In this document: positions 5,193 through 20,514 of the stretch, piece after piece
How positions within the stretch are numbered: the stretch's first letter is position 1
Layout: the number at the start of each line of letters is the position of its first letter
Assembly: GCA_964373695.1 (NCBI GenBank)
Contig: CAYJVT010000001.1
Span: 22,328 to 86,327, forward strand
Length of the DNA: 64,000 nt
DNA from: an uncultured archaeon
GTDB lineage: Archaea; Aenigmatarchaeota; Aenigmatarchaeia; GW2011-AR5
Direction of reading: 5' to 3'
Made by a program: the position numbers and the translations under genes
Notes under the pieces: model-generated
Seen by the model: only the letters and a program-made list of their open reading frames with translations
Database searches by the model: none
What the model was told of the DNA's origin: nothing

Positions 5193-6202
5193 TTGTTGTC
5201 GACGGCTCTCATGGTGAGGGGGGCGGCCAGATACTGAGGACCTCGCTTGCATTGTCCGCAGTCACCGGCGAGCCGTGTAAAATCTTGAACATAAGGAAAG
5301 GCAGGCAGAACCCGGGCATGCAGGCGCAGCATGTGGAGGCTGCAAAAGCCTTGGCCCAACTGTGCGATGCTGAAACAAGTGGCCTTCATCTTCATTCATC
5401 TGAACTTGAATTTGTTCCGCATGACATAAAGGGCGGCAATATACGTATTTTCATCCCCACTGCAGGCTCAGTTGCACTCGTTCTTCAGGGAATCATGATA
5501 GCGTCCCTTCGCGCGAAGAAGGGAGTTTCCGTGAGGATAGAGGGAGGCGCCACCCATGGAAAGTGGGCGCCCTCGGTGGTATATGCAAAGAACATCCTGC
5601 TGCCGCTCCTTTCAAAGATGGATTATGAGGGCTACATAGATGTGGAGAAGTACGGCTACTATCCAAAGGGCGGCGCCAGCGTGTCCTGCAACTTTGCCCC
5701 GAAAAAGCTGAAACCACTTGAGCTCATTGAAAGGGGGAAGGTGCTGTCAGTTGAGGGGGTTTCCCACGCATCCAAGCTTCTGGAGAAATCCCATGTAGCC
5801 GAGAGGCAGAAGAAATCCTGCGTGGAACACATGGAGAAGAACGGGTTTGAATGCAGGATATTCGATTCTTATTTCAACACAGTATGCGAGGGCTCCGCCG
5901 TCGACCTCTGGGCGAGAACGGAGAACTCTTTTCTTGGCGCCGACGGGCTTGGAGAAAAAGGGATGCGCGCGGAGGATGTCGGGAAGTGTGCGGCCGAAAA
6001 GCTCGTCGCTCTGCTGAAGGCCGGTGCCGCCCTGGACGAGCATGCGGAAGACCAGCTCCTTCCCTACATCGCCCTTGCAGGCGGCAGCTTCAGTTATCAT
6101 CACCTGACGCCGCACACGCGCACCAACATGCATGTGATAGAGAAATTCCTTCCAGTGAAATTCTCAATAGGTGAAAATATCATTTCATGCCGGGGCTCAT
6201 GA
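5189..6202 (+). CDS. rtcA: RNA 3'-terminal phosphate cyclase
   Basis: 337 aa starting MIVVDGSHGEGGGQILRTSLALSAVTGEPCKI..., the canonical RtcA N-terminus. A His-containing active-site region is present. Confidence 0.9.
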   Translation: MIVVDGSHGEGGGQILRTSLALSAVTGEPCKILNIRKGRQNPGMQAQHVEAAKALAQLCDAETSGLHLHSSELEFVPHDIKGGNIRIFIPTAGSVALVLQGIMIASLRAKKGVSVRIEGGATHGKWAPSVVYAKNILLPLLSKMDYEGYIDVEKYGYYPKGGASVSCNFAPKKLKPLELIERGKVLSVEGVSHASKLLEKSHVAERQKKSCVEHMEKNGFECRIFDSYFNTVCEGSAVDLWARTENSFLGADGLGEKGMRAEDVGKCAAEKLVALLKAGAALDEHAEDQLLPYIALAGGSFSYHHLTPHTRTNMHVIEKFLPVKFSIGENIISCRGS

Positions 6203-6748
6203 GGAAAACTTCATTTTCAGGTATTCTGCTATCGCGTGGCATATGAAGGAATGGACCGGTTCTATTATTGTGTAGTCGTTGTCATCCACTACAATGCAGT
6301 GCCCGGCGATTTTCTTGAGCATCCCGCCGGTAGAGCCTGTCAATCCGACTGTGGTTGCGCCTTTTTCTTTCGCGTACTCCACAGACTTGACAATGTTACG
6401 AGAGTTTCCCTTTGAGCTTATCGCTACGAGAACGTCATGTCCGTTCACGTTATGGATTCTCAGCTGTTCTGAAAAAACGTCGTCATACGATATGTCGTTT
6501 GAGATTGTTGTCATGAGGGATATGTTGACGGTGAGTGGTATGACATTGAACTGCTTTTTCGGCTTTGTATACGTGACGAGGTCGTTCGAAAAATGGGACG
6601 CTATGGAGGCGCTGCCGCCGTTGCCGCATATGAAGACCCTTCCGGCGCTCCCGTAAGTATTAAGCATGATATCCGCGATTTCATTTATCTTCTGATGCTC
6701 CAGGGAATTCAGGGCCTTGATATACATCTGCGTCATTTCCTGGAACAT
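6197..6748 (-). CDS. gmhA: SIS-domain phosphoheptose isomerase (D-sedoheptulose-7-phosphate isomerase)
   Basis: 183 aa with ...AGRVFICGNGGSASIASHFSNDL... (GmhA-type SIS motif) and the right size for GmhA. It is the last gene of the minus-strand heptose operon. Confidence 0.7.
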   Translation of the reverse strand: MFQEMTQMYIKALNSLEHQKINEIADIMLNTYGSAGRVFICGNGGSASIASHFSNDLVTYTKPKKQFNVIPLTVNISLMTTISNDISYDDVFSEQLRIHNVNGHDVLVAISSKGNSRNIVKSVEYAKEKGATTVGLTGSTGGMLKKIAGHCIVVDDNDYTIIEPVHSFICHAIAEYLKMKFSS

Positions 6749-6817
6749 AAATATGTCTTCCGTGGTGATTACTAAAGGGTTTTGCGTATGAATGCTTCGC
6801 CCATGAAATATCTTTCT

Positions 6818-7456
6818 TCACACCATAGCGCTCTTCTGGCTGCTTGCCATCGCCTGCTTTATGACGAAATCGACGCCGCCCGATTTCGCGGCGCCGTGGC
6901 CTGGAAAAAGGTATGAGATGCCCAGTTCCGAGAGCTTCTGGAGGGATTTGACCATGTCATCCCTGCTGCCGCCCGGGAAATCCGTCCTGCCTGATACTGT
7001 ATCGCCCGATATGAGTATCCTTTTCGCTCTCTCGTAGAGGCACACAGAGCCTGGCGTGTGCCCCGGAGTATGCAGTACTTCGAACCTGAAATTCTTTGTC
7101 TTTATGGCGGACTTGTCCTTCAGGAGCCTGTCAACAGTTGTCACCCGCGGCCTTTCGCCAAAAACCTCCGCAAGTGTCTCGCCGCTTTCAAGGCAGTCCT
7201 TGTCTTTCTGGTGTATGTATATCTCGGAGCCCAGCCAGTCCCTGAATTTCTTGTTCCCGCCTGTGTGGTCAAAGTGATGGTGCGTGTTTATTATGCTCTT
7301 GAGGCTCATTATGTCGGATATCGACTCTATCTCTCTTTTCATCTCATAAAAGAATCTCCCTGTGCCGGTGTCGATTATAAGCTCGTCATCCACGACATAG
7401 ACGTTGCAGTCGCCCTCAACGCCGGGCAGGACATGTATGTTTCTGAAGACCTGCAT
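6818..7456 (-). CDS. Metallo-beta-lactamase fold hydrolase
   Basis: 212 aa with INTHHHFDHTGG (HxHxDH) and a downstream ...HTPGHTPGS... metal-ligand motif. Confidence 0.7.
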   Translation of the reverse strand: MQVFRNIHVLPGVEGDCNVYVVDDELIIDTGTGRFFYEMKREIESISDIMSLKSIINTHHHFDHTGGNKKFRDWLGSEIYIHQKDKDCLESGETLAEVFGERPRVTTVDRLLKDKSAIKTKNFRFEVLHTPGHTPGSVCLYERAKRILISGDTVSGRTDFPGGSRDDMVKSLQKLSELGISYLFPGHGAAKSGGVDFVIKQAMASSQKSAMV

Positions 7457-7480
7457 CTTTTAGATATGCAGTGAAATTTT

Positions 7481-8290
7481 TTATAGGGATTCGGGCTGGA
7501 CATGCCTCCCGATAAGCCTGTGGGCGTTTATTGCGGAGAAGCGCGTCCCGTCCTTTAAGGCTATTATGTTCCCTTTGGCCGATGTTACCGTGCCCTTTAT
7601 CCTGATGCCGTCTGCAACCTCGACAACTTCGGGCTCCGATATTATCCTGTCGAGCCTGTAGTGGCTTCGCAGGTCGTATATCTCCGGGTTTATCAGATGC
7701 GCGTCGAATCCGTTCCCTCCAAGGCGTGCTATGGCTGAGGATATGGAGCCGATGCAGACATTGGGGTCGCAGAACAGCCTGGAATGCTTTTCCTTGGAGA
7801 CCATCCTGTCGACTATGCCGAGATGCCTCCTTATATCCTGCTCTATTATGCGGACCTCCTTCCCGTCCTTCACGTGGCCTATTTTCGCGCCGAAGTCGGC
7901 CCCCTGCTCTATGAGGCGGTAGAGAAACCTCATATCGAACGATATCCCTACTTTCAGCATCCCGTCAAAAGCGGCAAGATAGATGAAATACTTGTTCTCC
8001 ATGCAGCTGTCTCTCTTGACTGGGTTTATGCACTCCTTTCCAGTGCACTGGACGCAGTTGAAAAAATCGTCCTGCATGCAGCAGTAGTTGCACATGTAGT
8101 TGTTGTCGGTCGGTGAGGAGTTGGGGCATTCAAAGTGCTTTCCTCTTTTTTTGTACCCGGTGCATGTCTTCTTTCCGAGAACCATGTCTATGTAGCGGCC
8201 GAAAAGCTTAATGGAAGAGCCGTCGGAGAACGATATGAAGGGCTCGTAGGAGCCTGATTCCTGCTTCCATGAATATTTCATTATTTGCAT
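7481..8290 (-). CDS. Cysteine-rich hypothetical protein (Zn-ribbon-like clusters CTGY...C-x11-CNYCC...CVQCTGKEC)
   Basis: 269-aa ORF. Its start overlaps the stop of the upstream hypothetical gene by 10 nt. I recognise no family. Confidence 0.5.
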   Translation of the reverse strand: MQIMKYSWKQESGSYEPFISFSDGSSIKLFGRYIDMVLGKKTCTGYKKRGKHFECPNSSPTDNNYMCNYCCMQDDFFNCVQCTGKECINPVKRDSCMENKYFIYLAAFDGMLKVGISFDMRFLYRLIEQGADFGAKIGHVKDGKEVRIIEQDIRRHLGIVDRMVSKEKHSRLFCDPNVCIGSISSAIARLGGNGFDAHLINPEIYDLRSHYRLDRIISEPEVVEVADGIRIKGTVTSAKGNIIALKDGTRFSAINAHRLIGRHVQPESL

Positions 8291-8754
8291 CGGACTCTCC
8301 TCTTTGCCGCCTCAACCGCGGCTCTTATGAAATCCGAGTCGTCAAGATTTCGGAATGCCTTCAGCGCCGGAGCGCATTCCTCTATGTCCTCGGGCCTGCC
8401 GGAGGAGGCTATTTGGCTGTAATATATGTAAAAGAGATCGTCTGAATGCCCGTTCTTTGACATTTCCGCATTCACTTGGTCGTCGTCGCTTGTTCCCAGG
8501 GCGGCCTTGAAGAGCTGCCTTGTCAATAAGGCCTTTATCCCGCGCTCGTCCTTCTCGCGGACGAATATGTTGTCATAATCAATGCATATGAGCGCTGTGT
8601 CGCCCGACGAAAAGAAGGATGTTGAGTCCCTCACATGGAACTCCATTGATGAATACCTCAGTGGCAGGCCGAACCCTGTCAGGACTTCGTCAAATATTTT
8701 CGAGGCGAGCTTTGTAGAATCGTCATCTTTCACGAGGCTCTTCGTTACTCTCAT
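8281..8754 (-). CDS. Hypothetical protein, acidic
   Basis: 157 aa, no recognisable motif. It lies in an operon, translationally coupled to the downstream Cys-rich gene. Confidence 0.4.
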   Translation of the reverse strand: MRVTKSLVKDDDSTKLASKIFDEVLTGFGLPLRYSSMEFHVRDSTSFFSSGDTALICIDYDNIFVREKDERGIKALLTRQLFKAALGTSDDDQVNAEMSKNGHSDDLFYIYYSQIASSGRPEDIEECAPALKAFRNLDDSDFIRAAVEAAKRRVRCK

Positions 8755-8788: not shown

Positions 8789-9484
8789 CTATATGCCGGA
8801 GAAGTCCTTCCTCGCCTTCTCAAGCGCCTCAAAGGTTCCTACATCCACAAGCCTTTCGACCTCGAAGGCATACATCTTTTCGCCGGCCTTCAGCATGGAG
8901 GGGAATACGTCCTTCCCGAAGTCGCAGAAGCCGCTTGTTATGTACTTGAAAACCGACGGCTCCAGTATATAGACAGCTCCGCTGGCAAGATTTGACCTGG
9001 GCTTCTTGGGCTTCTCCTCAAAGGACACGATCCTTCCGTTGCCGTCCGTCTCTATTATGCCCTTTGATTGCGGATTGTTCGTTTCCATGTAGACCCCTAT
9101 GGTGGCCGCCGCGCCTTTCTTCCTGTGGAGCTTTGCCATGGCGCTCAGGTCGGCGTTTGTCATGTTGTCGCCGTAAATGACGACAAATGTGCCTTCAAGG
9201 AAATTTTCGAGGGATTTCACCCCTCCGGCCGCTCCGACAAGCTCCTTCTCCACCGTGTATAGTATGTTCACGCCGGAATCCGTGCCGTCACGAAAGTATT
9301 CGTGTATGCAGCTGGCGAGGTGGTGGGTCGTTATTACTATGTCCTTTATGCCGTGCTTTTTCAGGAGCTCTATTATATGCCATAGTATTGGCTTGCCGCC
9401 TACGTCTATCATCGGTTTGGGCACCTTCTCGGTGAGCGGAAGAAGCCGCGTCCCTTTGCCGGCGGCCACTATGACGCCTATCAT
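8789..9484 (-). CDS. hddC: Sugar-phosphate nucleotidyltransferase (candidate D-glycero-alpha-D-manno-heptose-1-phosphate guanylyltransferase)
   Basis: 231 aa: MIGVIVAAGKGTRLLPLTEKVPKPMIDVGGKPILWHII... (G-x-G-T-R-L loop). It lies next to gmhA and the hddA-like kinase. The hddC assignment is contextual. Confidence 0.7.
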   Translation of the reverse strand: MIGVIVAAGKGTRLLPLTEKVPKPMIDVGGKPILWHIIELLKKHGIKDIVITTHHLASCIHEYFRDGTDSGVNILYTVEKELVGAAGGVKSLENFLEGTFVVIYGDNMTNADLSAMAKLHRKKGAAATIGVYMETNNPQSKGIIETDGNGRIVSFEEKPKKPRSNLASGAVYILEPSVFKYITSGFCDFGKDVFPSMLKAGEKMYAFEVERLVDVGTFEALEKARKDFSGI

Positions 9485-10311
9485 ACTCCGCCACCCTTCA
9501 TGGCCCTTATGGCCCTCTCATATCCGTCGTGGCTTCCGACGTCAAGCACCATGCCGTCATAGATGTATCCCGAAAGCTGGCCGTCCATGGCCAGCCTGTT
9601 GAAGAGGTCTTCTATCATGAACTTCTGGCGAGTGACGTAATCCGACACTCCGGGCTCGAATATGCAGAGCCCGGCGTTTATTATGTTTGAAGTGCTCCTC
9701 GCCGGTTTTTCCTTGAAATGCACGACGCGGTTTCCCCTCATCTTGGCCACGCCGTAATTCCTCGTTTCGCTGGATGTGGAAAGCAGGACGGTAGCTAGCG
9801 TCCCCTGGCTCTTGTGGAATTCGTGCATCTCGTATAGGTCCGGATTGAGAAGCGTATCGACATTTACCATCACGAACCTGTTCCTTATCAGCTCCTTGGC
9901 CGGCATGAGGCACCCGGCTGTGCCGAAAGGCTTGTCCTCGGCTATGTATTCTATACTTACCCCGAAGTTGGAGCCGTTGCCGAAATGCTCCATCACCTTC
10001 TCCTTCATGTGGCCGACAGAAACCACGAGGTTGCGTATGTCATATTTCTTTAGCATCCTTATCTGATGCTCCAGTATCGGCCGTCCGTTTATCGGTATCA
10101 GCGGCTTGGGTATCTCGTAGGTTATGGGACGGAGGCTAACGCCTTCGCCTCCGGCCAGTATCAGCGCGGTATCCATGTCGGTTTTCCCGAATGCCCTGGA
10201 CAGCATGACCTCTATGGCATGGGACCTGTTTCTTATGTTTCTCTTGTCAACCATGCTGTCCAGCCTTTTCAGGACATCCTGCTTCACAGTTATCGTCACG
10301 CGCTCTACCAT
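9481..10311 (-). CDS. Ribbon-helix-helix (CopG/NikR-like) domain fused to a sugar-phosphate nucleotidyltransferase
   Basis: The N-terminal ~45 aa ...ITVKQDVLKRLDSMVDKRNIRNRSHAIEVMLSRAF is an RHH fold signature. It is followed by ALILAGGEGVSLRPITYEIPKPLIPINGRPILEHQI... (NTP-transferase G-loop). Probable ATG at 10309-10311; a GTG at 10312-10314 is also in frame. Confidence 0.7.
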   Translation of the reverse strand: MVERVTITVKQDVLKRLDSMVDKRNIRNRSHAIEVMLSRAFGKTDMDTALILAGGEGVSLRPITYEIPKPLIPINGRPILEHQIRMLKKYDIRNLVVSVGHMKEKVMEHFGNGSNFGVSIEYIAEDKPFGTAGCLMPAKELIRNRFVMVNVDTLLNPDLYEMHEFHKSQGTLATVLLSTSSETRNYGVAKMRGNRVVHFKEKPARSTSNIINAGLCIFEPGVSDYVTRQKFMIEDLFNRLAMDGQLSGYIYDGMVLDVGSHDGYERAIRAMKGGGV

Positions 10312-10314
10312 CAC

Positions 10315-10385
10315 ACCACCGTATTGAAATAGTATGAAAAAGTATGAAACTCAAATTATTTAAGCGGTAGTCCCATATTCTGCAG
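10315..10385. promoter_or_regulatory. Bidirectional promoter region with tandem direct repeat agtatgaaa (10331-10339, 10341-10349) and AT-rich TATA-like box aaattatttaag (10353-10364)
   Basis: 71-bp gap between the divergent RHH-NTase and hddA-like genes. The repeats sit immediately upstream of the RHH-NTase start. Confidence 0.4.
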
Positions 10386-11402
10386 ATGGTAATCAGGAGC
10401 AGGTCCCCGGTGAGGATATCCTTTGCCGGAGGGGGGACAGATGTGCCCCCGTATAGGGATGAAAAGGGCGGGTGCGTCGTTTCAGCGACGATAAACAAAT
10501 ACGCCTACGCGACGCTGGAGCAGCGCAACGACAGCAACATACACATACATTCCGCCGATTTCCTGAAGAGCTTGGCTTTCAAGAACACGGCCGAAATCGA
10601 ATACAATAACGAACTCGACCTTCTCAAGGCCGTGATAAAGAAGATGGCGCCTTCTGCCGGCATGAACATATTCATGAGGTGCGATGTCCCGCCGAAATCC
10701 GGGCTGGGCAGCAGCGCGGCCGCGTTTGCCGCCATGATAGGGCTGTTCAATCACATGAGAAAGGAAAGAAGGATGACGGATTATGAAGTGGCGGAACTGG
10801 CATACAGGCTTGAGAGGGAGGAGCTTAAGGTGGGCCGCGGGAACCAGGACCAGTATGCAACGGTTTTCGGCGGGATGAATTTCATAGAATTCGGGGAAGG
10901 CTGGGTGAAGGTCAACCCGCTGAGGATGAAAAAGGACCACTTGCTTGAGCTTGAAAAGCATCTTATCCTCGCGTACATAAAGCCGCGGCAGGACGAAAGC
11001 AGCAACATCATAGACGACCAGACGAACCGTTACATATCCGGCGATACGAGGACTGTGGAGGGCCTCGACAAGGCGAAGGAAGTGGCTGTCGAGATGAGAT
11101 ATGCCCTCCTCGGCGGCGACCTGATGCGGTTCGGCGAACTCCTCAATGAGGGTTGGGAGGCAAAGAAGAAGTTTTCGCCGCTCATCAGCAACAGGTATAT
11201 AGACGATATTTACGACCTGGCGAGGAGGAACGGCGCCCTCGGAGGGAAGATTACTGGAGCCGGTGGATCCGGCTTTTTCCTTTTTTTCTGCGAACCCAAC
11301 AAGGAGCATGTCCTAACAGACGTGCTGGAGAAATCGGGGCTCAAGCCCATGACTTTCACGTTCGACCACGACGGGCTTCAGACATGGGAAGTAAACAAGT
11401 GA
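10386..11402 (+). CDS. hddA: GHMP-family sugar kinase, D-glycero-D-manno-heptose-7-phosphate kinase-like
   Basis: 338 aa: MVIRSRSPVRISFAGGGTDVPPY... (HddA/GmhB-kinase-type N-terminus), a GHMP motif PPKSGLGSSAAAFAAM, and a C-terminal GAGGSGFFLFF. Confidence 0.75.
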   Translation: MVIRSRSPVRISFAGGGTDVPPYRDEKGGCVVSATINKYAYATLEQRNDSNIHIHSADFLKSLAFKNTAEIEYNNELDLLKAVIKKMAPSAGMNIFMRCDVPPKSGLGSSAAAFAAMIGLFNHMRKERRMTDYEVAELAYRLEREELKVGRGNQDQYATVFGGMNFIEFGEGWVKVNPLRMKKDHLLELEKHLILAYIKPRQDESSNIIDDQTNRYISGDTRTVEGLDKAKEVAVEMRYALLGGDLMRFGELLNEGWEAKKKFSPLISNRYIDDIYDLARRNGALGGKITGAGGSGFFLFFCEPNKEHVLTDVLEKSGLKPMTFTFDHDGLQTWEVNK

Positions 11403-11411
11403 GGTGTTGAG

Positions 11412-11669
11412 ATGAATGATGGATATAGGGAACTTATGGAAGCCGTAGGAGATATTCCGGTAGGGGCGAGAAGGGTCGTGTCCATAGGAGCATATCCGGG
11501 AAGGACGGAAATCATGATGACGGATAACGGCCCGAAGGCAATTTATGCAAATGGGGGCGACTCGGGATTGGCAACTGTTTACCTGGACAAAGAAGCGCCC
11601 CCTGAGGAGTGGAGAATAGGACGCGGCCTCAGCGAAGATGACTTTAGGAGGGCAGCTGAAAGGCTTTGA
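11412..11669 (+). CDS. Small hypothetical protein (85 aa)
   Basis: An ATG 10 nt after the hddA stop is preceded by GAGGTG. No recognised motif. Confidence 0.3.
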   Translation: MNDGYRELMEAVGDIPVGARRVVSIGAYPGRTEIMMTDNGPKAIYANGGDSGLATVYLDKEAPPEEWRIGRGLSEDDFRRAAERL

Positions 11670-11758
11670 CCCAAGGCTTAAAAAGAATTTGGGGAAGGGA
11701 TAGCCATGAAAATCCTTGAAAAACAAAGTTTTTCAGGATCTCAAAGGAGGCACCTCCT

Positions 11759-12676
11759 TTGAAGATATTGGTGACGGGCGGCGCGGGTTTCATAGGCAGC
11801 AATCTTTCCAAGGCGCTAGTCAAAAAGGGCCATGAAGTGACCGTCCTTGACAACTTCTTCCTCGGCGCAGAGAATAACATCGCAGACATCAAAAGCCGCA
11901 TAAAGCTCGTTAAGGCCGACATAACGGACGCGGCGGCCGTTACAGAAGCGTCTAGAGGATGTGACGTGATATTCAACGAAGCTGCTGCATCATCCTCCCC
12001 GATGTTCAAAAAGGACCTTCGCCGCAGCGTCGCCGTCAATGTCGACGGGTTCATCAACGTGATGGACGCGGCTGTGAAAAACGGCGTGAAACGCGTTGTT
12101 TATGCATCGACGTCGTCTATTTACGGTAACATGAAGCCCCCTCTTACAGAAGACGTGAAGTGCGTTCCGGTCAATATGTACGCATCAACGAAGCTCATGA
12201 ATGAGCATATAGCTCTCCTTTTAGGCATGGAAAACGGAATCGAAACCATAGGCCTCCGCTATATGAGCGTTTACGGCCCGGGGGAAGAGCCAAAGGGAAT
12301 CTTTGCCAATCTGGTGTCGCAGTTCCTGTGGGCCATGAAGAGGGGGGAGAGTCCTGTTATATACGGCGATGGCACCCAGACGCGCGACTTCACCTACGTG
12401 AAGGATGTCGTCAAAGCCAACATACTCGCAATGGAATCCAAAAAACACCTTAATGACGTGTTCAACGTAGGCACCGGAACGGAAGTTTCGCTCAACGGGC
12501 TCGTGGAAATCCTTAACCGTGTTCTGGGAAAGAAGATAAAAGCCAAGTACGTGAGAAACGATGTCAAAAATTATATATCAGCACAAAGGGTGGACATCTC
12601 GAAGATAAGGAAGGAGCTTGGATATGAGCCAGAGTTCACACTGGAAGCCGGCATAAGGGATATGCTATCACAATAG
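11759..12676 (+). CDS. NAD-dependent nucleotide-sugar epimerase/dehydratase (extended SDR)
   Basis: 305 aa: MKILVTGGAGFIGSNL... (Rossmann GxxGxxG) with a YxxxK region (YASTK). Confidence 0.8.
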   Translation: MKILVTGGAGFIGSNLSKALVKKGHEVTVLDNFFLGAENNIADIKSRIKLVKADITDAAAVTEASRGCDVIFNEAAASSSPMFKKDLRRSVAVNVDGFINVMDAAVKNGVKRVVYASTSSIYGNMKPPLTEDVKCVPVNMYASTKLMNEHIALLLGMENGIETIGLRYMSVYGPGEEPKGIFANLVSQFLWAMKRGESPVIYGDGTQTRDFTYVKDVVKANILAMESKKHLNDVFNVGTGTEVSLNGLVEILNRVLGKKIKAKYVRNDVKNYISAQRVDISKIRKELGYEPEFTLEAGIRDMLSQ

Positions 12677-13729
12677 TTTCTTTGCCATGTTCTTCATCTT
12701 TCTTTCGAATTGCGACGTGTCGTATTTCCTCGATTCTTTCATTAGCAATGCGGCATTCCACTTCGTCTTCTCCGACCTCTCTACAGCGGCGTTGAGCGAA
12801 TCCTCGTCAGGCTGGAAGAATATTCCTGTCTTTCCGTCCTTTATTGTCTCGGTGAAACCTCCTTCATTGACAGCTATGCACGGCTTGCCTGACGCCATGC
12901 TTTCGACAGCAACAAGACCGAAGTCTTCATCAACGGCAGCTGCAACCGTGGCCCTGCATCTGGAATATATGTCTATCAGTTCCTTTTCATCCAGGCTCCC
13001 GGTAAATTCTATGCTGTCATGCCCGGCAGCCAGTGCCTTGAGTCTTTTCTCGTCCGGGCCTGTGCTGGCTATCACAAGTCGCCTGCCATTCTCTATGAAC
13101 GCGTTTATTACCATATCGATTCTTTTGAGTTTATCCAGCCTGGACGTGGATAGGTAAAAGTCCTCGCTTTTCCTATTGAGGAATTTATTCGTGTCTACAG
13201 GAGGGTTCACAATGGAACATTTTTTGTACACGTCAGGCCCGTAATATTTCATGACCCTGCTCAGGGTATTTCTAGAATTGACAGCGATGGAACTGAATTC
13301 CCTGACAGCAGACTGGTCCAGATACATATATTTTTTGCAGAATCTCCTGAAAAAGAGCCTTGTTACCGGATTAATGCCGGATTCGAAATGAGCCTTCAGG
13401 TCGTAAAGGAAGCGCGGCGGGGTGTGCATGTAAAGTATGTTGGGCTTCAGCCTCTCCGCAGCGCTCATGCACCATGTCCCGGAAAATATGTAGAGGTCAT
13501 ATTTTATGTCAAGTTTTTTGAAGAGCCTTGACAGCTTGGTTATCCTGGAACGTCCGGCAGGCGGCCTGCCCATAAAGGTTTTCACGTTTATCCCGTCCGT
13601 ACAGTAAGTCTTCCCGCTATCCACGAACCCCGTGTAGAGGTCTGCATCGAACATCCTTGCAAGGGCCAGTGCAACACGCTCTCCGCCTCCCTTTTTGCCG
13701 AAATAATCGTGGAGTATCGCAACTCTCAT
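12668..13729 (-). CDS. Glycosyltransferase family 4
   Basis: MRVAILHDYFGKKGGGERV... N-terminal GT-B domain and a C-terminal E-x7-E-like region (...AVESMASGKPCIAVNEGG...). The start ATG at 13727-13729 overlaps the upstream stop (ATGA). Confidence 0.8.
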   Translation of the reverse strand: MRVAILHDYFGKKGGGERVALALARMFDADLYTGFVDSGKTYCTDGINVKTFMGRPPAGRSRITKLSRLFKKLDIKYDLYIFSGTWCMSAAERLKPNILYMHTPPRFLYDLKAHFESGINPVTRLFFRRFCKKYMYLDQSAVREFSSIAVNSRNTLSRVMKYYGPDVYKKCSIVNPPVDTNKFLNRKSEDFYLSTSRLDKLKRIDMVINAFIENGRRLVIASTGPDEKRLKALAAGHDSIEFTGSLDEKELIDIYSRCRATVAAAVDEDFGLVAVESMASGKPCIAVNEGGFTETIKDGKTGIFFQPDEDSLNAAVERSEKTKWNAALLMKESRKYDTSQFERKMKNMAKKLL

Positions 13730-14724
13730 TGGAGCACTTCCTCGTAGACATTTCCGGTCTTTTTCGCGGCTGTTTTCCACGTGAAATTATTCGACCTCTT
13801 CAGGGACTTCCTTGACATCTTTCTGGAAAGTCCGCTGTCGGCAAGTATGGACGAAACCTTGCTGCATATGTCTGCGGGGCTTTCCGGATCGAAGTATGTG
13901 GGGGCGTCGCCAAGTATCTCTGGCATTGCCGCAGCATTGCTTGAAGCCACCGGGCAGCCGCATGCCATGGCCTCGAGCGGCGTGAAGCCAAACCCCTCGA
14001 AAAGCGACGGGTATACGAACGCCCTTGCATTGGAATAGTACTCGGCCATCCCGTCCTCAGTAAGGTTCCCCGTTATTTTGACATCCTTCTCCAGTCCGAG
14101 GGACCTTATCCTCTCACGTATTGCCGGATTGTCGTAATTCTTGACCAGCTTCAGTCCCGGAAAATCCGCCTTCAGCATCGCGAAGGCGTCTATGAGGACC
14201 GGGATGTTTTTTCTCCTCTCTTCGGAACCGAAATAAACTATGTAATCTGCCTCTTTCTTCTTTCTTCGCGGCCTGAAAGCCCCGGATATCCCTGAATGCA
14301 CCACCCGTATGTCATCCTCTCGGGCCTGTGTGTATCTCATCACTTCGTTCTTGGTGAATTCTGATACGCATATTATTTTGCCGCATTTTTCCATGCCCTT
14401 TATAGCAAGCCTTGAGAAGAATGCATGCCTCCTGCTTTCAAAAAGCTCTGGTCTTGAAAACGCCATCATGTCATGGCAAGTTATTACCGTGGGCTTTCCC
14501 GTGGCAGACTTTGAAAGGTGCCCGAACGTCTGGGAGCTGAAATGGATGATGTCGCCACCGTCAAGATGCGGGGGCCGCATGTGCCTGAGGAACCCGTTTT
14601 CCGTCTCCTTTACCGTTATGCGGAATCCTTTTCCGATGTTCTTCGAAAGGCTCAGTATGTAGTTCTTTATGCCCCAGTTGTATTCGCTTCCGATACCGCC
14701 CGAAATCATCTGGACGTTTATCAT
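13726..14724 (-). CDS. Glycosyltransferase family 4
   Basis: 332 aa with ...PSLFEGFGFTPLEAMACGCPVASSNAAAMPEILGDAP..., the GT4 signature. Confidence 0.8.
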   Translation of the reverse strand: MINVQMISGGIGSEYNWGIKNYILSLSKNIGKGFRITVKETENGFLRHMRPPHLDGGDIIHFSSQTFGHLSKSATGKPTVITCHDMMAFSRPELFESRRHAFFSRLAIKGMEKCGKIICVSEFTKNEVMRYTQAREDDIRVVHSGISGAFRPRRKKKEADYIVYFGSEERRKNIPVLIDAFAMLKADFPGLKLVKNYDNPAIRERIRSLGLEKDVKITGNLTEDGMAEYYSNARAFVYPSLFEGFGFTPLEAMACGCPVASSNAAAMPEILGDAPTYFDPESPADICSKVSSILADSGLSRKMSRKSLKRSNNFTWKTAAKKTGNVYEEVLQ

Positions 14725-16220
14725 GAAGAAAACCTCTCCGCCACGGCTGCAAGCTTTTCAGGGAACGAACTCCTGATTATCATCATGTCGCTTTTGGTGA
14801 ATATTTTCACTTTGAGGAATATGCCGGCGTAGAACAGGCCCGCCAGCGATGCGCATATCGCGGCTTCGGCCAGTATGTTCATCGACAGAGCCTGCTTCAC
14901 GAAATAGATTATGACAACCGATGCGAGGGAGTTGGACAGGATGATTGATATGTCCCTCACTGGCGCCGATATTTTTATCTCTTTCCTGAGATGCAAATAA
15001 AATATCAGGAAACCTATGACGTATGAAGAAATGGCCGATGCGGCGGCGCCGGCGATGCCAAAAGCCGGCACCAGGATTATGTTTGCTGCCACGTTGAACG
15101 CCGACACTATAATGACAGTAAGCGTGCTTTTTTTGGGCTGTCCTATCGCGTTCAGGATGACAGAGAACAGGATGTTCATGCTGAAAAATATCATGCCAAA
15201 GCTGAGAACCTGCAGTGGCAGGGCGGAATCTATGTACTTTCTGCTAAGAAACAGGTCCATTATAATCTCGGGGAATGCTATGAATATGGCGGCCGCGAAC
15301 GCTATGAAAAGGAAAACGGACTTTATCATGAATTCCACATGCGTCGTCAGTTCCTTCTTATTCCCTTTTGCCCACATTTCCGACACCACAGGAAACAGTA
15401 TAACCGACAGCGAGCCGGCGAACACGAGGAGCATCTGCGATGTTGAAACGGCCGCCTGATAGAGTCCAACTTCGTATAGCGACCTGAAATACGTGAGTAT
15501 CATTGTGTCGGCAGAGCCTATGAGAAAAGTCGATATGCTCCCCAGAAAAACGAAGGAGCCGAATATTATGACATTCTTTTCCGAACCCATGAGTGCCTTC
15601 CCCTTCCCAAGACCCCTCACATGCTTTGCAACATAAAGCGCCATCATAACCTGTATCATCATTGACGCCGCGAAATAGCTCACGGCAACGCCGATGAGCG
15701 TGGCGTCGCCTGATGCCAATATGAAGGAGAAAATGACGGCTATTCTTATCGCTTCTATGAGCGAGAATGCAAGTATTTTCTGGAATCCCTGGAGGAGCAT
15801 TTTAAGGAACGATACTGCAAGCACCAGCTCGACTGAAAAAAGCTTTATCAGGAAGGATGCCTTCTCCGAGTGGAAGAAAGATAATGCTATGTAGTCGGAC
15901 ATCATGAAAGTTGCGAGCCCTATCACAGCCCCTATTGACAGCTGAAGCAGGAATGATGACTTTATGGCTCTTCCGATGGAAGCATAGGCTCCCTTTACCA
16001 TGAACTCTGGTATGTATTTTACCAGAGCCGAGCCGAGCCCGAAATCCTTTATCACGAAAAACAGCGAGAAAAAGGTCAGTATGGAATAAAAGAGGCCGAA
16101 ATCATCGACAGGGAGGCTCCTTGCAACAAATATCCTGAGAAGATATCCCATCCCGGTTCCAAGTATGGACAGTACAAAAGCAATTGAAGCGCCTTTTATT
16201 ATCCTGTTGGCGTAGCCCAT
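14721..16220 (-). CDS. Polysaccharide biosynthesis protein / oligosaccharide flippase (Wzx-like, MOP superfamily)
   Basis: 499-aa polytopic protein with ~12-14 hydrophobic helices. It overlaps the upstream gene by 4 nt. Confidence 0.75.
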   Translation of the reverse strand: MGYANRIIKGASIAFVLSILGTGMGYLLRIFVARSLPVDDFGLFYSILTFFSLFFVIKDFGLGSALVKYIPEFMVKGAYASIGRAIKSSFLLQLSIGAVIGLATFMMSDYIALSFFHSEKASFLIKLFSVELVLAVSFLKMLLQGFQKILAFSLIEAIRIAVIFSFILASGDATLIGVAVSYFAASMMIQVMMALYVAKHVRGLGKGKALMGSEKNVIIFGSFVFLGSISTFLIGSADTMILTYFRSLYEVGLYQAAVSTSQMLLVFAGSLSVILFPVVSEMWAKGNKKELTTHVEFMIKSVFLFIAFAAAIFIAFPEIIMDLFLSRKYIDSALPLQVLSFGMIFFSMNILFSVILNAIGQPKKSTLTVIIVSAFNVAANIILVPAFGIAGAAASAISSYVIGFLIFYLHLRKEIKISAPVRDISIILSNSLASVVIIYFVKQALSMNILAEAAICASLAGLFYAGIFLKVKIFTKSDMMIIRSSFPEKLAAVAERFSS

Positions 16221-16280
16221 TGGTGATATTTCAATAAGACCCTTTTAAAAGTGAAATTATCTTTAGATTTTTGTTCTAAG

Positions 16281-18038
16281 TTATTTCTTTTCTATCACGT
16301 AATTCCCCATTGCAAGGTACCTGAGGCCGCTTCTCTCAAGGGTGCTGAAAGCGTCGTGCGGCGTGCATACGATGGGCTCGCCGTGCAGGTTGAATGAGGT
16401 GTTCAGTATGCCGCCGTGACCCGTCTCCTTCTTGAAGGTTTTTATCAGTGCATGGTAGCGGGGATTCCATTCCCTGTCAACCACCTGCGGTCTTGCGGTG
16501 AAGTCTGACTGGTGCAGGGCAGCGCGCAACGCGTCCCTGCCGAGAGGCGTCGTATTGAAGGACAGTATCATATACTGGTCATTGGCGGACTTTCTGGGCA
16601 TCTCAAGGAGCTTCCTCGCGTCCTCCCTCATTATGGAAGGCGCGAAAGGCATCCAGAAATCGCGCTGCTTTATCTGGGAGTTTATCTCAGTTATTGCGCG
16701 CATGTCCCGCGGGTCCGCTAGTATGCTTCTGTTGCCGAGGGAGCGGGCGCCGAACTCCATCCTGCCGCTAAGGCGGGCAACTATTCGCCCTTCTGACAGC
16801 ATCTCGCCGACAGCCTTGTCTATGTCCCTGTGGCTCTCTATCCTGTACTTCTTCCTGTCTATCCCCTTCACGAATTCATCTATTTTGTCGTCGTAGGAGG
16901 GTCCTAAATATATGTCCTTTATCTCTTCGAATATTGGTTTGGAGCCGTCTTCCTTGCACAAGTCCGCGTATCCAAGCATCGCGGCTCCGATGCAGCTGCT
17001 CTCGTCTCCGCCCGAAGGCATCGCGAAAATGCTGCCGACCTCAGGCATCTCCATAAGGCGCTGGTTGCATTTGACGTTCATGAAGAACCCGCCGCATACC
17101 ATTATATCGTCTATTCCGTAGCGGCTTATGCAGTTCCTGACCCATCCAGCCGTCACTTTTTCGGCCATGTTCTGCAACGCATATGCGACGGCGTCGAATC
17201 TGTGCTTGTGCAGGCTGTCCCTGAGGTAGAGGCCGTATGAATGCGCCCACCTCTTCGTCCTGTTCCTGAATTTGACCCCTCTGACATCAGCCATGCGCTC
17301 GAACACATCGACGGATTTCCTGGCGTAATGTTCTGATGAATATGGAGCAAGGCCCATAACCTTGTACTCATGCTCCCATGGCTTCATCCCAAGGTACCAT
17401 GTCACCTCGTTGTACATCTTCGCTATGGAATGTACGAAGGGTATCGAAACCGTGCGGTGGATGTCTCCGTTCTCCGCTATGCTGACCGTTGCGCACAGGC
17501 CGTCGCCCTCTCCGTCGGATGTGAATACAAGCCTCCTGCCCTTTGGCGTGCCCTTGAAATAATAAGCGGTCGCCGCATGGACCTTGTGATGCTCATACAT
17601 GACTATCGGCGCGGTTATCCCGATCTGCCTGAGGGCTTTCATGTACGCAGGGAGGAATTTTCTTGTCTTGTAGAAGCGCCTGAACCTCGTCGCGGCCGGG
17701 CACAATATGCTCTCCGTCACTTTCATGGGAAATATCCTCGCAGCATGGGAGAACGCGACTATGGATTTCCTTTTCTCCTTCCTCATCTTCGCTATCTCGT
17801 TCAGGTCGGCGGGGGTTATATCCTTCGAGCTGAAGGCGACGAGGTTTATCTGTTCGCCGTTTATTCCCTCATCGGACATCATTTTTTGTATGGAATTTAT
17901 GGGAAACCTGTGGTCGTTCTTTATCCTCGTCAGCCTCTCCTCTATTATGCAGGAAACTGTGCGCCCGTTTACCATGATACACGCTGAAGAGGGGTGGCTG
18001 TCATTGATTCCAAGAACTATCCTGTCTGTCATTTTCAT
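16281..18038 (-). CDS. Carbamoyltransferase, NodU/CmcH family
   Basis: 585 aa with an N-terminal Kae1/YgjD-like domain (MKMTDRIVLGINDSHPSSACIMVNG..., ...TSDGEGDG...) and a C-terminal carbamoyltransferase domain (...ILNTSFNLHGEPIVCTPHDA...). Confidence 0.75.
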   Translation of the reverse strand: MKMTDRIVLGINDSHPSSACIMVNGRTVSCIIEERLTRIKNDHRFPINSIQKMMSDEGINGEQINLVAFSSKDITPADLNEIAKMRKEKRKSIVAFSHAARIFPMKVTESILCPAATRFRRFYKTRKFLPAYMKALRQIGITAPIVMYEHHKVHAATAYYFKGTPKGRRLVFTSDGEGDGLCATVSIAENGDIHRTVSIPFVHSIAKMYNEVTWYLGMKPWEHEYKVMGLAPYSSEHYARKSVDVFERMADVRGVKFRNRTKRWAHSYGLYLRDSLHKHRFDAVAYALQNMAEKVTAGWVRNCISRYGIDDIMVCGGFFMNVKCNQRLMEMPEVGSIFAMPSGGDESSCIGAAMLGYADLCKEDGSKPIFEEIKDIYLGPSYDDKIDEFVKGIDRKKYRIESHRDIDKAVGEMLSEGRIVARLSGRMEFGARSLGNRSILADPRDMRAITEINSQIKQRDFWMPFAPSIMREDARKLLEMPRKSANDQYMILSFNTTPLGRDALRAALHQSDFTARPQVVDREWNPRYHALIKTFKKETGHGGILNTSFNLHGEPIVCTPHDAFSTLERSGLRYLAMGNYVIEKK

Positions 18039-18130
18039 AATCTTTGTGAAAGCCTTTTTAAAAACTGATTTTGATATTCAAAATAATGTCCTAATGTAGT
18101 ATTTTAAACGTGTAACCCATATGCAGTTCA

Positions 18131-19819
18131 ATGAAAAAATACGCGCTGGCGGCGGCGCTTTGCCTCCTGATTGCCTCGATGGTGCAGTATGCCCTCTTCT
18201 TCGGGCTCCATCCCGAAGGTCTGGTATTCAACTCGCTTGGCGAGGACGAGGCCCTGTTCGTCACTGCCATAAAGCTGTCTGAGTTCGGCTACGAAAGCCC
18301 GTGGACCTTGGAAAGCGACGGCGTTGTCAGGCTTGCGTTCCTGAACCCGGCTAACGGCCCGGTTTTCATGCTGTTCCCTATATCCGTTTTTTACGCCGCT
18401 TCCGGCATAAGTGCCTTGGGGCTATTTGCGCTCTTCAAGCTCTTTTCGGCGGCGTTGATGCTCGCAGCCATATACCTGCTTGTCAGGCATTTCGATTTCA
18501 AATCAAGGTATAGGATTTTTATCCTACTCGTGCTTTCTGCAGGGTTCGGCGGATTAATCCATCTCGTGTCATCCTTCTTTTACCCGGACCGCCTTCTGTA
18601 CCCACAGTCGCTTTTCGGATTCGGCGTCAGCATCTTCCGCTTTGTGGAATCCTATCAGGCGTTCTCGCTTGCCCTGGGGCTCATGTCCCTGTTATTTTTC
18701 GTGAAAAAAAGGATTCTTCTATCGTCAGCGTTCCTCGGATTTACGGTTCTCGTGTATCCTTTTCACGGCATATCGTTCTTCATAGTAATGGCCATTTATT
18801 GCCGCGTCTTTTCGCTTGGAGCGTCTCATATATCAAAGGTGTTCGCGGCCCTGCTGGCCTTTTCGTCTGTATGGGCATTTTCATACTTTTTCCAGCCGGT
18901 TCTGTTTGACAACTATGCAAATGCGGTAGGCACGGTGAGCGTCAACGTCCTGCCTTCCGTTCTCCTGGGACTGGGGCCTCTGTTCATATTTCTCCTGTAC
19001 GACATGAAGAAAAGGTTTCCGTTTGTTTCTGAAAGGAGGCATTTGGCGTTCTTTCTTGCATCCTTCGCGCTCATGTCGTACTACCAGATATCAAGCTCGG
19101 TGTGGGCGCCGCCTCTTCCCTCTAATCCACTGTTCGTCATTTTCAGCGTGCCATTCCTCGCCTTTCTTGGATATCTTGCAAAGAAGATGCTGGAAAGCGG
19201 GCATGAAAAGCGCATTGTTTTCATGTATGCGTGGTTCGTTGTATTCCTCTTCATTGTGGTGTTTCCAGTCAAGATATTCTCGGTTCTGCCGCCGAAGGTG
19301 ACGGTGTTCCTTTATTTTCCGCTTGCTTTCCTGGCTTACGAGGGGATGAAGAAATCCGGTAAAGTCTTTATTGCCGTTGTAGCGGTTTCTGCACTGTCAA
19401 TATTCTTCTTCTATTCGTTCGAGCAGATGGACGCCAGGGATATCTACGATAACGGCACCATTAAGGAGCAGAACTTCTTTTACACTGAACCAGACATAAA
19501 GGCTCTTGGTTTCCTGAAGGGCATGCCGGCCGGGAATGCGATATCATCTCAGGCCATAGGAACTTACCTGCCGTATTATTCAGGGAAGAAATCCCTTCTG
19601 TTCGGCACCAACAGGGGCGATATAGTCCTTAATGTGGGCGAAAAGCTTTCGGATTACAGGAAGTTTTATTCGTCTCCGGACAGAAGCGTTCTTGAAAAGT
19701 ACGGCATCAGGTACGTGTTTTACGGGACTTTTGAAAAACGCCTGGGAGATTTAGGAAGCCCCGATTATCTCAGAAAGGTGTACAGCGACGGCACCGAGAT
19801 ATACGAATTCATCCCATGA
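18131..19819 (+). CDS. Polytopic membrane protein with C-terminal soluble domain, GT-C-like; member of a 3-paralog family in this window
   Basis: 562 aa with >10 predicted TM helices. Its C-terminus ...EKYGIRYVFYGTFEKRLGDLGSPDYLRKVYSDGTEIYEF aligns with the C-termini of the proteins at 20515..22248 and 56706..58538. Confidence 0.5.
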   Translation: MKKYALAAALCLLIASMVQYALFFGLHPEGLVFNSLGEDEALFVTAIKLSEFGYESPWTLESDGVVRLAFLNPANGPVFMLFPISVFYAASGISALGLFALFKLFSAALMLAAIYLLVRHFDFKSRYRIFILLVLSAGFGGLIHLVSSFFYPDRLLYPQSLFGFGVSIFRFVESYQAFSLALGLMSLLFFVKKRILLSSAFLGFTVLVYPFHGISFFIVMAIYCRVFSLGASHISKVFAALLAFSSVWAFSYFFQPVLFDNYANAVGTVSVNVLPSVLLGLGPLFIFLLYDMKKRFPFVSERRHLAFFLASFALMSYYQISSSVWAPPLPSNPLFVIFSVPFLAFLGYLAKKMLESGHEKRIVFMYAWFVVFLFIVVFPVKIFSVLPPKVTVFLYFPLAFLAYEGMKKSGKVFIAVVAVSALSIFFFYSFEQMDARDIYDNGTIKEQNFFYTEPDIKALGFLKGMPAGNAISSQAIGTYLPYYSGKKSLLFGTNRGDIVLNVGEKLSDYRKFYSSPDRSVLEKYGIRYVFYGTFEKRLGDLGSPDYLRKVYSDGTEIYEFIP

Positions 19820-20510
19820 GCCTGATGGCCATGAGCCTTAGCGCCATGCGCGGGCCGGACTTTATCCTGAAAGTGGAGAATTCGCTGTGGGACCACTTTA
19901 CAGGGAATTCTATTATGTTTCCTCCGCTCTTTTTTATTCTCCACAGCATCTCGGCGTCGAACTCGAATCCGCCGGATTTCATGCTGGCCAGGCATGATAA
20001 CATTTTCCTCGTCATGACCTTGGCGCCGCATTGGGTGTCCGTAATCCCTAGGCCGAAGAGAATGTTGACGTAATGGCTGAAGACATTGCCGAGAAGCCGC
20101 CTGTAGGCCGGCTGTTTTTTCGTCACGAATGATTTTTCCATGTTGCGGGAGCCTATTACAATGCAGTCCGCGCTTTTCCGGCAAGTCTCCATCATGGAAC
20201 GGAAATTGCCGGGCCCGACGGAGCCGTCGGCATCCGTAAAGCCTATTATATCTCCGCTGGCATGCCTTAGCCCTTCCATCACCGCCCTTCCCTTTCCGAG
20301 CCGGTTTCCGGACTCGATGATTCTCACGTCCTTATGAGCCTTCATGAAGCTTTTCGTGATGGAAGCCGTCGTGTCGCTTCCGTCGCATACCACTATAATC
20401 TCAAACTTCATCCCTGACTTCTTGAAGTGCCTGAAATAAGACTCCAGCGTTCCTTCTATCCTCTTCTCCTCGTTGTAGGCCGGTATCACGATGGAATACG
20501 AATTCTTCAT
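19809..20510 (-). CDS. GT2 glycosyltransferase, dolichyl-phosphate hexose synthase-like (DPM1/AglD/AglJ-type)
   Basis: From MKNSYSIVIPAYNEE... with ...DGSDTT...TDADGS... (DxD). ~230-aa soluble GT-A. Confidence 0.8.
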   Translation of the reverse strand: MKNSYSIVIPAYNEEKRIEGTLESYFRHFKKSGMKFEIIVVCDGSDTTASITKSFMKAHKDVRIIESGNRLGKGRAVMEGLRHASGDIIGFTDADGSVGPGNFRSMMETCRKSADCIVIGSRNMEKSFVTKKQPAYRRLLGNVFSHYVNILFGLGITDTQCGAKVMTRKMLSCLASMKSGGFEFDAEMLWRIKKSGGNIIEFPVKWSHSEFSTFRIKSGPRMALRLMAIRLMG

Positions 20511-20514
20511 GGCA

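Follow-up and report, generated by a model that had tools for sequence, protein, structure and literature searches.

The 64,000-nucleotide stretch of archaeal DNA analyzed here (hereafter the window; contig CAYJVT010000001.1, from an uncultured member of the Aenigmatarchaeota) carries on its minus strand a gene that fuses a ribbon-helix-helix (RHH) DNA-binding domain to a sugar-1-phosphate nucleotidyltransferase (NTase) fold. The gene is divergent from a GHMP sugar kinase, and the short intergenic region between the two contains a tandem repeat of the hexamer GTATGA beside a TATA box. The fusion architecture is conserved across several DPANN phyla, and the repeat is strongly associated with this gene family. 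From these comparisons we consider it likely that the fusion protein is a one-component autoregulator of cell-surface sugar synthesis, acting on two divergent operons that resemble a nucleoside diphosphate (NDP)-heptose pathway, with the NTase fold serving as its ligand sensor. The fusion gene and the features around its promoter are as follows.

9481-10311, minus strand: RHH-NTase fusion gene, 276 amino acids (aa) from the ATG at 10311; the open reading frame (ORF) reaches a GTG at 10314
10189-10302, minus strand: ribbon-helix-helix DNA-binding domain, residues 5-42 of the 277-aa ORF, with strand RVTITV and helix-2 start RNRSHAIE
9496-10170, minus strand: sugar-1-phosphate nucleotidyltransferase fold, residues 49-273, probable ligand-sensing domain
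10126-10155, minus strand: degenerate signature loop AGGEGVSLRP, with Val59-Ser60 in place of the canonical Thr-Arg
10314-10320, minus strand: putative Shine-Dalgarno-like element GGTGGTG before the ATG at 10311, read from the sequence
10331-10349, minus strand: predicted operator, TTTCATACT-T-TTTCATACT on the gene strand and AGTATGAAA-A-AGTATGAAA on the plus strand
10356-10363, no strand assigned: putative archaeal TATA box, TTATTTAA / TTAAATAA, apparently common to both divergent genes

The fusion gene and its distribution

The ORF at 9481-10314 (minus strand) encodes 277 aa if read from the GTG. The ATG at 10311 is the start in most homologs and in the public gene call of an identical protein, and is the probable start of the gene. 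An earlier note on this DNA, which had proposed the fusion, allowed for a start further downstream, at an internal Met just before ALILAGG, that would leave a plain NTase. This start was rejected: the residue is Met in only two of 81 family members, the N-terminal 47 codons carry 16 synonymous and 12 nonsynonymous changes relative to a 77%-identical relative of the window protein (locus L002), and the public gene call also speaks against it.

The fusion is widespread among orthologs. All 120 homologs among the matches listed are 264-295 aa long and cover 91-100% of the query. A genome scan with one genome per species gave at least 578 candidate loci, the best 80 of which were analyzed; in all 80 the alignment starts within the first eight residues, and the genomes are labeled Aenigmat-, Woese-, Nano-, Alti- and Parvarchaeota and Diapherotrites. 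The closest of these loci (L001) belongs to a groundwater Aenigmatarchaeota genome, encodes a 96%-identical protein and has an identical gene order. The public names of the fusion proteins mention the transferase only. No entry among the solved structures spans both the RHH and NTase domains, and no description of such a fusion was found in the full-text literature, the coverage of which is incomplete, so that this is absence of evidence only. A search of 1.8 billion representative proteins with the RHH domain alone gave 102 matches; ten of these were scanned against Pfam, and seven contain an NTase domain. Matches without one comprise a 61-aa RHH protein, two proteins of 210-220 aa in which no enzyme domain was detected, and a Big_2 protein that is probably spurious; an RHH domain fused to another enzyme class was not seen among the ten scanned matches of the 102.

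For comparisons within the family we used a table of 81 sequences, comprising 17 in clade A (Aenigmatarchaeota, including the window protein) and 64 in clade B (Woese-, Nano-, Alti-, Parvarchaeota and others), and an alignment of 40 sequences with identity down to 48% (A1). The RHH domain and the enzyme fold are conserved to a similar degree, with mean pairwise identities of 60% vs 54% in clade A and 52% vs 59% in clade B. Two unusual occurrences may be recorded here. Locus L007 (4001-5681) carries tandem fusion paralogs with 58% and 46% identity to the window protein and a one-mismatch copy of the upstream motif at their junction. Locus L024 (JACOXO010000004.1) is a full-length fusion gene on a 62-kb contig labeled Candidatus Gottesmanbacteria, a candidate phyla radiation bacterium, which would be explained by misbinning or else by gene transfer between ultra-small archaea and bacteria.

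The RHH domain and its relation to NikR

Pfam RHH_1 matches residues 5-40 of the window protein (E=4.5e-6, 26.9 bits against a gathering threshold of 20.5), and the domain is detected in homologs as well. Nine of its positions are invariant in A1, namely R5, T7, T9, L15, D19, R30, S31, H32 and E35. In the AlphaFold2 monomer model (mean predicted local distance difference test score, pLDDT, of 87) the N-terminus is extended to residue 11 and is followed by helices at residues 12-21 and 30-42 (pLDDT 71-84), a six-residue linker and the NTase fold. DSSP assigns no strand in this model, as is expected because the RHH sheet forms only between two chains, and the model is consistent with a strand-helix-helix topology at the N-terminus of the fusion. 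When a profile built from 35 RHH domains of the family was run against all solved structures, the best match was the RHH domain of Escherichia coli NikR (E=7.6e-7, residues 2-44). Together, the Pfam score, the conserved residues, the modeled helices and the NikR match bear out the assignment of an RHH domain made in the earlier note, and the modeled helices and Pfam match dispose of the concern that the segment might be disordered or of another fold. A homodimer of this domain is predicted to read the DNA major groove through a two-stranded antiparallel sheet, with indirect support from the conserved operator described below.

In the profile alignment, QRVTITLDDDLLETLDSL...NNRSEAI of NikR pairs with eRvTiTl..dlLkkvDsm...NRSHAiE of the family. 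NikR residues R3, T5 and T7 reportedly make the base contacts. The NikR operator is GTATGA-N16-TCATAC (PMC7055735), with an enterobacterial consensus of GTATGAT-N13/14-ATCATAC (PMC545781). The hexamer repeated upstream of the fusion gene is therefore the one read by the same strand in NikR, which provides independent support for GTATGA as the probable target of the RHH strand in the fusion protein.

A conserved tandem motif upstream of the fusion gene

The region common to the fusion gene and the divergent kinase (10315-10385) is 71 bp long, or 74 bp counted from the ATG, and its extent agrees with the earlier note. The plus strand reads GTATTGAAAT AGTATGAAAA AGTATGAAAC TCAAATTATTTAAG. The tandem repeat at 10331-10349 and the AT-rich box TTATTTAA at 10356-10363 are both present as that note had described them; the plus-strand GTATGA cores of the repeat lie at 10332-10337 and 10342-10347, 10 bp apart. 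In the form TCATAC-N4-TCATAC the motif occurs once within the window, no further operator site was found in the 64 kb at up to one mismatch, and two-mismatch matches there look random. A lone exact copy of AGTATGAAA at 18879-18887 lies within an ORF. In L002 the TATA box and the two repeats are kept as a block between flanks that have diverged on both sides, and the repeats are also conserved in L001. Two further elements in this region were set aside. One is a third, degenerate copy, GTATTGA (10321-10327), which was rejected as part of the operator for want of conservation in L002; the other is an inverted repeat, TACCATC/GATGGTA, dismissed since it arises only from both genes beginning with ATGGTA.

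Across the family, we searched the 140 nt before each of the 80 fusion genes. The pair TCATAC-N4-TCATAC is present exactly in 24 of the 80, with up to one mismatch in 35 and with up to two mismatches in 48; the remaining 579 kb of the same loci contain three exact copies, corresponding to an upstream enrichment of about 470-fold. Counted from start to start, the two copies are 10 bp apart in 40 cases and hardly ever at another distance, with 40 pairs in the sense orientation and one in antisense. TCATAC also emerged de novo as the most enriched upstream 6-mer (80 observed vs 3.6 expected, z=40, in 43 of 79 loci), ranking above the TATA-like k-mers that are likewise enriched across the family. 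Of the 427 other genes in these loci the pair precedes 4, compared with 35 of the 80 fusion genes (Fisher p=2e-27). Among the four, three are demonstrably on a promoter region in common with a fusion gene or its operon, one beside a second fusion paralog and two flanking the promoter of a ROK-kinase-fusion operon, and the fourth is in L055. This enrichment, the fixed spacing and orientation, and the preference for fusion genes over their neighbors mark the tandem repeat as a conserved cis-element that belongs to this gene family. Its distance from the start codon varies between -17 and -139, so that it is neither a core promoter element nor an RNA leader element. Presence of the motif also varies with the state of the RHH domain: it is found in 41 of 67 loci with a canonical RHH and in only 1 of 13 in which the domain has diverged, either by Lys, Gln or His replacing the strand Arg or by changes to the helix-2 Ser-His.

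Several individual occurrences of the motif deserve mention. In L056 (3114-4813) and L118 (11090-12832) a same-strand gene, which in L056 encodes a ROK-family sugar kinase, precedes the fusion gene in what appears to be one operon; the motif is found at the promoter of that operon, still divergent from the GHMP kinase. In the Altiarchaeota locus L037 (JAZDMS010000023.1), an exact TCATAC-N4-TCATAC at 1151-1166 lies 73 nt upstream of a transketolase N-terminal subunit gene and about 2.8 kb from the fusion gene. This transketolase may be a further member of the regulon, with a link to sedoheptulose or pentose phosphate supply. Four other Altiarchaeota loci (L025, L035, L039 and L044) carry half-sites that, judged by eye, are inverted (TCATAT...TATGA) rather than directly repeated, an arrangement that suggests a different disposition of dimers in this phylum. 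Exact 18-mers of the repeat in unrelated metagenome contigs include a triple repeat with a 29-bp period (L157:1667-1742) and inverted pairs about 170 bp apart (L083, L098 and L135); these copies are probably satellite or small mobile elements that have no connection with the regulator.

The NTase fold and its signature loop

The earlier note had described the remainder of the protein as a complete NTP-transferase. As regards the fold this holds: Pfam NTP_transferase matches residues 50-271 (E=2.7e-41) and Pfam shows only NTP_transferase-type domains after the RHH, and Foldseek returned NTases alone, with query-normalised template modeling (TM) scores of 0.69-0.76 to VTC1, tlr0611, GMPPB, RmlA and HddC. 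The description fails at the signature motif, which is canonically GGxGxR(L)xPLx5PK and reads GGEGVS-L-RPITYEIPK in the window protein, with Val-Ser for Thr-Arg. In alignments to 7whr and 8x7s, Ser60 corresponds to R21 of the Leishmania GDP-mannose pyrophosphorylase (LdGDP-MP). The signature-loop Arg has been described as absolutely conserved and as the main phosphate anchor (PMC9424295). Its loss reduces activity 100- to 6000-fold, with values of about 500-fold for GalU T20M/R21H and about 6000-fold for GlmU R18A (PMC4643126).

The two clades differ in this loop. Clade B retains the canonical GGKGTRLRPxT, NGDxL, EKP and DTG motifs, with the signature Thr present in 59 and the Arg in 60 of the 64 sequences. 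In clade A the Thr is present in 0 of 17 and the Arg is absent from 14 of 17, with the loop deleted altogether in L021 and L078. Of the other active-site residues, K70 (the Lys of the PK motif) and the metal-binding D153 and D258 show no variation in A1, and K203 is retained in the window protein; the EKP motif is present in the window protein and variable across clade A. In 13 of 17 clade A loci a second, separate NTase gene is found no more than 4 kb from the fusion gene, vs 8 of 63 loci in clade B (p=1e-6). The loss of Thr-Arg in clade A, together with the canonical paralog adjoining the fusion gene, suggests that the clade A fold probably senses a ligand and is no longer catalytically active. 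We read the pattern as a probable duplication with a subsequent division of labor, the fused copy keeping ligand and DNA binding and the free copy catalysis. In clade B, because the signature motif is intact, the protein is likely to be both enzyme and regulator. The sequences P0130, L021 and L078 keep the RHH domain and have lost most of the NTase signature loop, with the promoter motif kept in L021 and L078; these are natural "dead enzyme" versions of the protein.

Gene neighborhood and pathway

The genes on either side of the promoter region are listed below.

8789-9484, minus strand: canonical short NTase paralog with the GKGTRLLPLT loop intact; its start overlaps the stop of the fusion gene (ATGA)
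6197-8754, minus strand: closely spaced downstream genes encoding ORF157, DUF2797, an MBL-fold hydrolase and a SIS_2 isomerase (GmhA-like)
10386-11402, plus strand: divergent GHMP sugar kinase (HddA-like), with Pfam GHMP_kinases_N and GHMP_kinases_C; probably a leaderless transcript
11412-12676, plus strand: rest of the kinase-side operon, with an 85-aa ORF (11412-11669) and an NAD-dependent epimerase (11759-12676)

Close behind the fusion gene on the minus strand come, in order, the canonical NTase, the 157-aa protein, DUF2797, the MBL-fold hydrolase and the SIS_2 isomerase, the best NCBIfam match of which is GmhA. Since the genes at 6197-8754 are closely spaced, they and the fusion gene probably form one operon. 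The kinase has its best NCBIfam match, over its full length, in HddA (249.6 bits, below the cutoff of 600), and the epimerase in a heptose 6-epimerase, also below cutoff. Against NCBIfam equivalogs the fusion protein scores 103.4 bits vs a cutoff of 300, and the neighboring paralog 96 bits. With all equivalog scores below cutoff, "NDP-heptose-like" is a contextual label for this pathway; the kinase, epimerase and GmhA-like isomerase nevertheless fit the heptose or glycan-precursor pathway that the earlier note had envisaged. In 11-15 Aenigmatarchaeota loci the fusion gene is found together with the divergent kinase and the DUF2797, MBL and SIS genes. The conserved partner in clade B is a phosphohexomutase, located immediately downstream of the fusion gene in 37 loci.

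Three of the conserved genes, ORF157 and DUF2797 (7481-8754, minus strand) and the 85-aa ORF (11412-11669, plus strand), have no assigned function and are conserved in Aenigmatarchaeota loci together with the genes for the kinase, the NTase and the isomerase. A GmhB-type phosphatase was not detected in the operon genes that were scanned; these three proteins may supply missing steps of the pathway, and the MBL-fold hydrolase (6818-7456) is another candidate. Past the kinase operon, at 12668-22248, lies a glycan-assembly cluster with two GT4 glycosyltransferases, a Wzx/MurJ-like flippase, a carbamoyltransferase and a GT2 glycosyltransferase. This cluster also contains two large ORFs, at 18131-19819 and 20515-22248, that have no Pfam match.

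Promoter geometry and a proposed mechanism

The center of the TATA box lies 26.5 nt before the kinase ATG, a distance that fits a leaderless kinase transcript. Read on the other strand, the same TATA box predicts a start for the fusion operon near 10333, giving a leader of about 22 nt that contains the GGTGGTG element. From the fusion-gene side, the operator (10332-10347) spans the interval from the TATA box to this predicted start; from the kinase side it is 8 nt upstream of that box. The offsets follow a fixed pattern within the family: the pair begins 16-18 nt after the start of the TATA box in most clade A loci. In clade B it begins 26-29 nt before the start of the TATA box, which is itself located at -30. 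A site between TATA box and transcription start is the classic position of an archaeal repressor.

These positions suggest how a one-component regulator might act. Two NikR-type RHH domains would pair into a dimer that reads GTATGA, and the direct repeats, 10 bp apart, imply two adjacent dimers, which would sit side by side on copies one helical turn apart (10332-10347) and presumably be held together through their C-terminal nucleotidyltransferase-fold domains. At its own operon, which encodes the canonical NTase, three conserved proteins of unclear role and the GmhA-like isomerase, an occupied operator between the TATA box (10356-10363) and the predicted start should block recruitment of the polymerase. 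At the kinase/epimerase operon the site would lie just upstream of the TATA box, where its occupation could produce either activation or repression, and a single binding event could thus set the whole NDP-heptose-like pathway. The signal would be an NDP-sugar, a sugar-1-phosphate or an NTP sensed by the NTase-fold domain. The earlier note had proposed an enzyme doubling as a regulator; a one-component regulator at a divergent promoter survives as the best reading of the locus, and the clade A partner of the RHH domain is now likelier to be a sensor than an enzyme.

Alternative explanations

A number of observations weigh against the reading of the fusion protein as a sensor-regulator acting at this operator. 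A strict tandem pair is missing from about half of the 80 loci, and some carry variant half-sites (TAATAC, TCATAT) or inverted ones, as judged by eye. The sequences are related, so the locus counts are larger than the number of independent events. Matches to the exact 18-mer in metagenome contigs number at least 120, and only 4-5 of the 120 sampled adjoin a fusion gene or its operon, so that outside the DPANN archaea the 18-mer alone is not diagnostic. The promoter geometry is built on consensus archaeal spacing rules, which may not hold for DPANN. Finally, three clade A members keep the signature Arg and R62, two positions further on, is nearly invariant, so some residual catalysis may persist.

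This last point bears on the alternative that the window protein is a moonlighting enzyme, an active sugar-1-phosphate NTase that, like PutA or BirA, also acts as a repressor at its own promoter. We regard this as possible, if on the unlikely side. In its favor are the complete fold, the retention of K70, D153, K203 and D258 in addition to R62, the fully canonical motif of clade B, and the existence of eukaryotic UDP-Glc pyrophosphorylases that work without this Arg (PMC4643126). Standing against it are the Val-Ser substitution, the loss of the Arg in most of clade A and of the loop in two members, the large decreases in activity measured for GalU and GlmU variants (PMC4643126), and the translational coupling of a canonical paralog to the fusion gene. 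We consider it very unlikely that the RHH is only a dimerization or scaffold module, with the TCATAC repeats bound by another factor or serving as a promoter element. Such a module would make some sense in short NTases without the left-handed beta-helix oligomerization domain, since the fusion matches only the N-terminal domains of longer enzymes, and DNA binding by the fusion protein is a prediction. However, the strand residues are invariant in A1, the motif follows the gene from phylum to phylum, through changes of gene context and of placement with respect to the TATA box, in a way that a core promoter element would not, its hexamer is the half-site of the closest solved RHH protein, NikR (PMC7055735), and loci with a diverged RHH mostly lack it.

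The identity of that hexamer with the enterobacterial NikR half-site (PMC7055735, PMC545781) raises a further alternative, in which a genuine nickel-responsive NikR, encoded in another part of the genome, binds the repeats and their link with the fusion gene is incidental. Archaeal NikR homologs do exist (e.g., that of P. horikoshii, PDB 2bj1), but NikR operators are inverted with half-sites 16 bp apart whereas the repeats here are direct with a 10-bp period, no other RHH of the NikR type is encoded within the 64-kb window, the gene context has no relation to nickel, and the motif co-occurs across phyla with the fusion gene itself; we give this explanation very little credence. Least credible of all is that the repeat is a functionless chance feature of an AT-rich promoter. 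The 18-mer does occur in many unrelated AT-rich metagenome contigs, yet chance is contradicted by the upstream enrichment, by the fixed spacing and orientation, and by conservation of the repeat amid diverging flanks. The preferred reading remains that of an autoregulator whose NTase fold probably senses a ligand.

A broader scheme can be sketched, which we put forward as speculative and rather improbable in its full extent. A NikR-type head with GTATGA specificity, mounted on an NTase, would constitute a nucleotide-sugar master switch throughout DPANN. For most phyla the scheme would make the active enzyme its own transcription factor, which would activate or repress its leaderless phosphohexomutase operon from 26-29 nt before the start of the TATA box. 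In the Aenigmatarchaeota a duplication would have divided these functions between a dead-enzyme sensor and a plain enzyme, with the sensor toggling a single TATA box such that its own operon is shut and the pre-initiation complex is favored toward the kinase operon.

Significance and comparison with known systems

The DPANN archaea account for a large share of archaeal diversity and have few cultivated members, and we know of no experimentally defined DPANN transcription regulator. Here a candidate regulator, its predicted operator and its putative target operons are in hand and conserved across several phyla, and one purified protein together with a 70-bp DNA fragment would suffice to test all three. 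Surface glycans are likely to be central to the attachment of these small symbionts to their hosts, which makes control of glycan precursors biologically relevant. If our reading is correct, a sugar-nucleotide enzyme would join the short list of enzymes fused to DNA-binding domains, a DNA-reading module would have kept its specificity on moving from a metal sensor to a metabolic sensor, and an enzyme-to-sensor transition would be documented inside one gene family. A one-component RHH regulator with an enzyme-derived sensor would be of a known kind, and its combination with the NTase fold appears to be new.

The closest parallel is with NikR of E. coli (PDB 1q5v, 2hzv), which likewise has an N-terminal RHH of about 45 residues with the strand RVTITL and NRS-x-AI opening helix 2, a C-terminal ligand-binding domain after a short linker, and a GTATGA/TCATAC half-site at a promoter that it represses. 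The two differ in the C-terminal domain, which in NikR is an ACT-like nickel-binding tetramerization domain and in the fusion protein an NTase fold, and in the ligand, a metal for NikR and, by prediction, a sugar nucleotide or phosphate for the fusion protein. They differ also in the operator: NikR half-sites are inverted, 16 bp apart and bound by RHH dimers at opposite ends of the tetramer, whereas the repeats of the fusion gene are direct and 10 bp, or one helical turn, from start to start. For binding of adjacent dimers the better analogs are Arc, CopG, MetJ and omega, the dimers of which assemble cooperatively on neighboring short repeats, about 7-11 bp apart and along the same face of the DNA. 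For omega and MetJ these repeats are direct, and only MetJ is liganded, by S-adenosylmethionine. Unlike the fusion protein, all four are small stand-alone proteins without an enzyme-fold domain.

With respect to the sensor, GMPPA senses GDP-mannose. It is among the structural matches of the fusion protein (7d72_A/B). GalF (M15/H16) and the large subunit of ADP-glucose pyrophosphorylase (K44) have substitutions of the signature Thr/Arg and strongly reduced activity, yet these paralogs have been retained (PMC4643126), and inactive alpha-subunits of the human enzyme have been noted (PMC9424295). GalF, the large subunit and GMPPA are catalytically impaired NTase paralogs with regulatory roles and share their fold with the clade A proteins, in which catalysis is probably lost, but they regulate through contact with the active paralog and have no DNA-binding domain.

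BirA and NadR are one-component regulators that combine a nucleotidyl-transferring enzyme with a DNA-binding domain, and the state of the reaction controls repression. They differ from the fusion protein in being bacterial, in using a helix-turn-helix or winged-helix domain and in having unrelated enzyme folds. PutA of E. coli and Salmonella, also bacterial, joins an N-terminal RHH to a metabolic enzyme with active proline dehydrogenase and P5C dehydrogenase functions; it exerts autogenous control over the putA-putP divergent region, with its output set by the state of the substrate through flavin reduction and membrane binding. The enzymes themselves are unrelated, and what PutA and the fusion protein have in common is an RHH joined to an enzyme fold at a divergent promoter. 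Like "trigger enzymes" of the PutA type, the fusion protein unites a DNA-binding domain and an enzyme fold in a single chain and has a conserved motif at its own promoter; regulation is a predicted part of the parallel, and catalysis, probably lost in clade A, a likely one in clade B.

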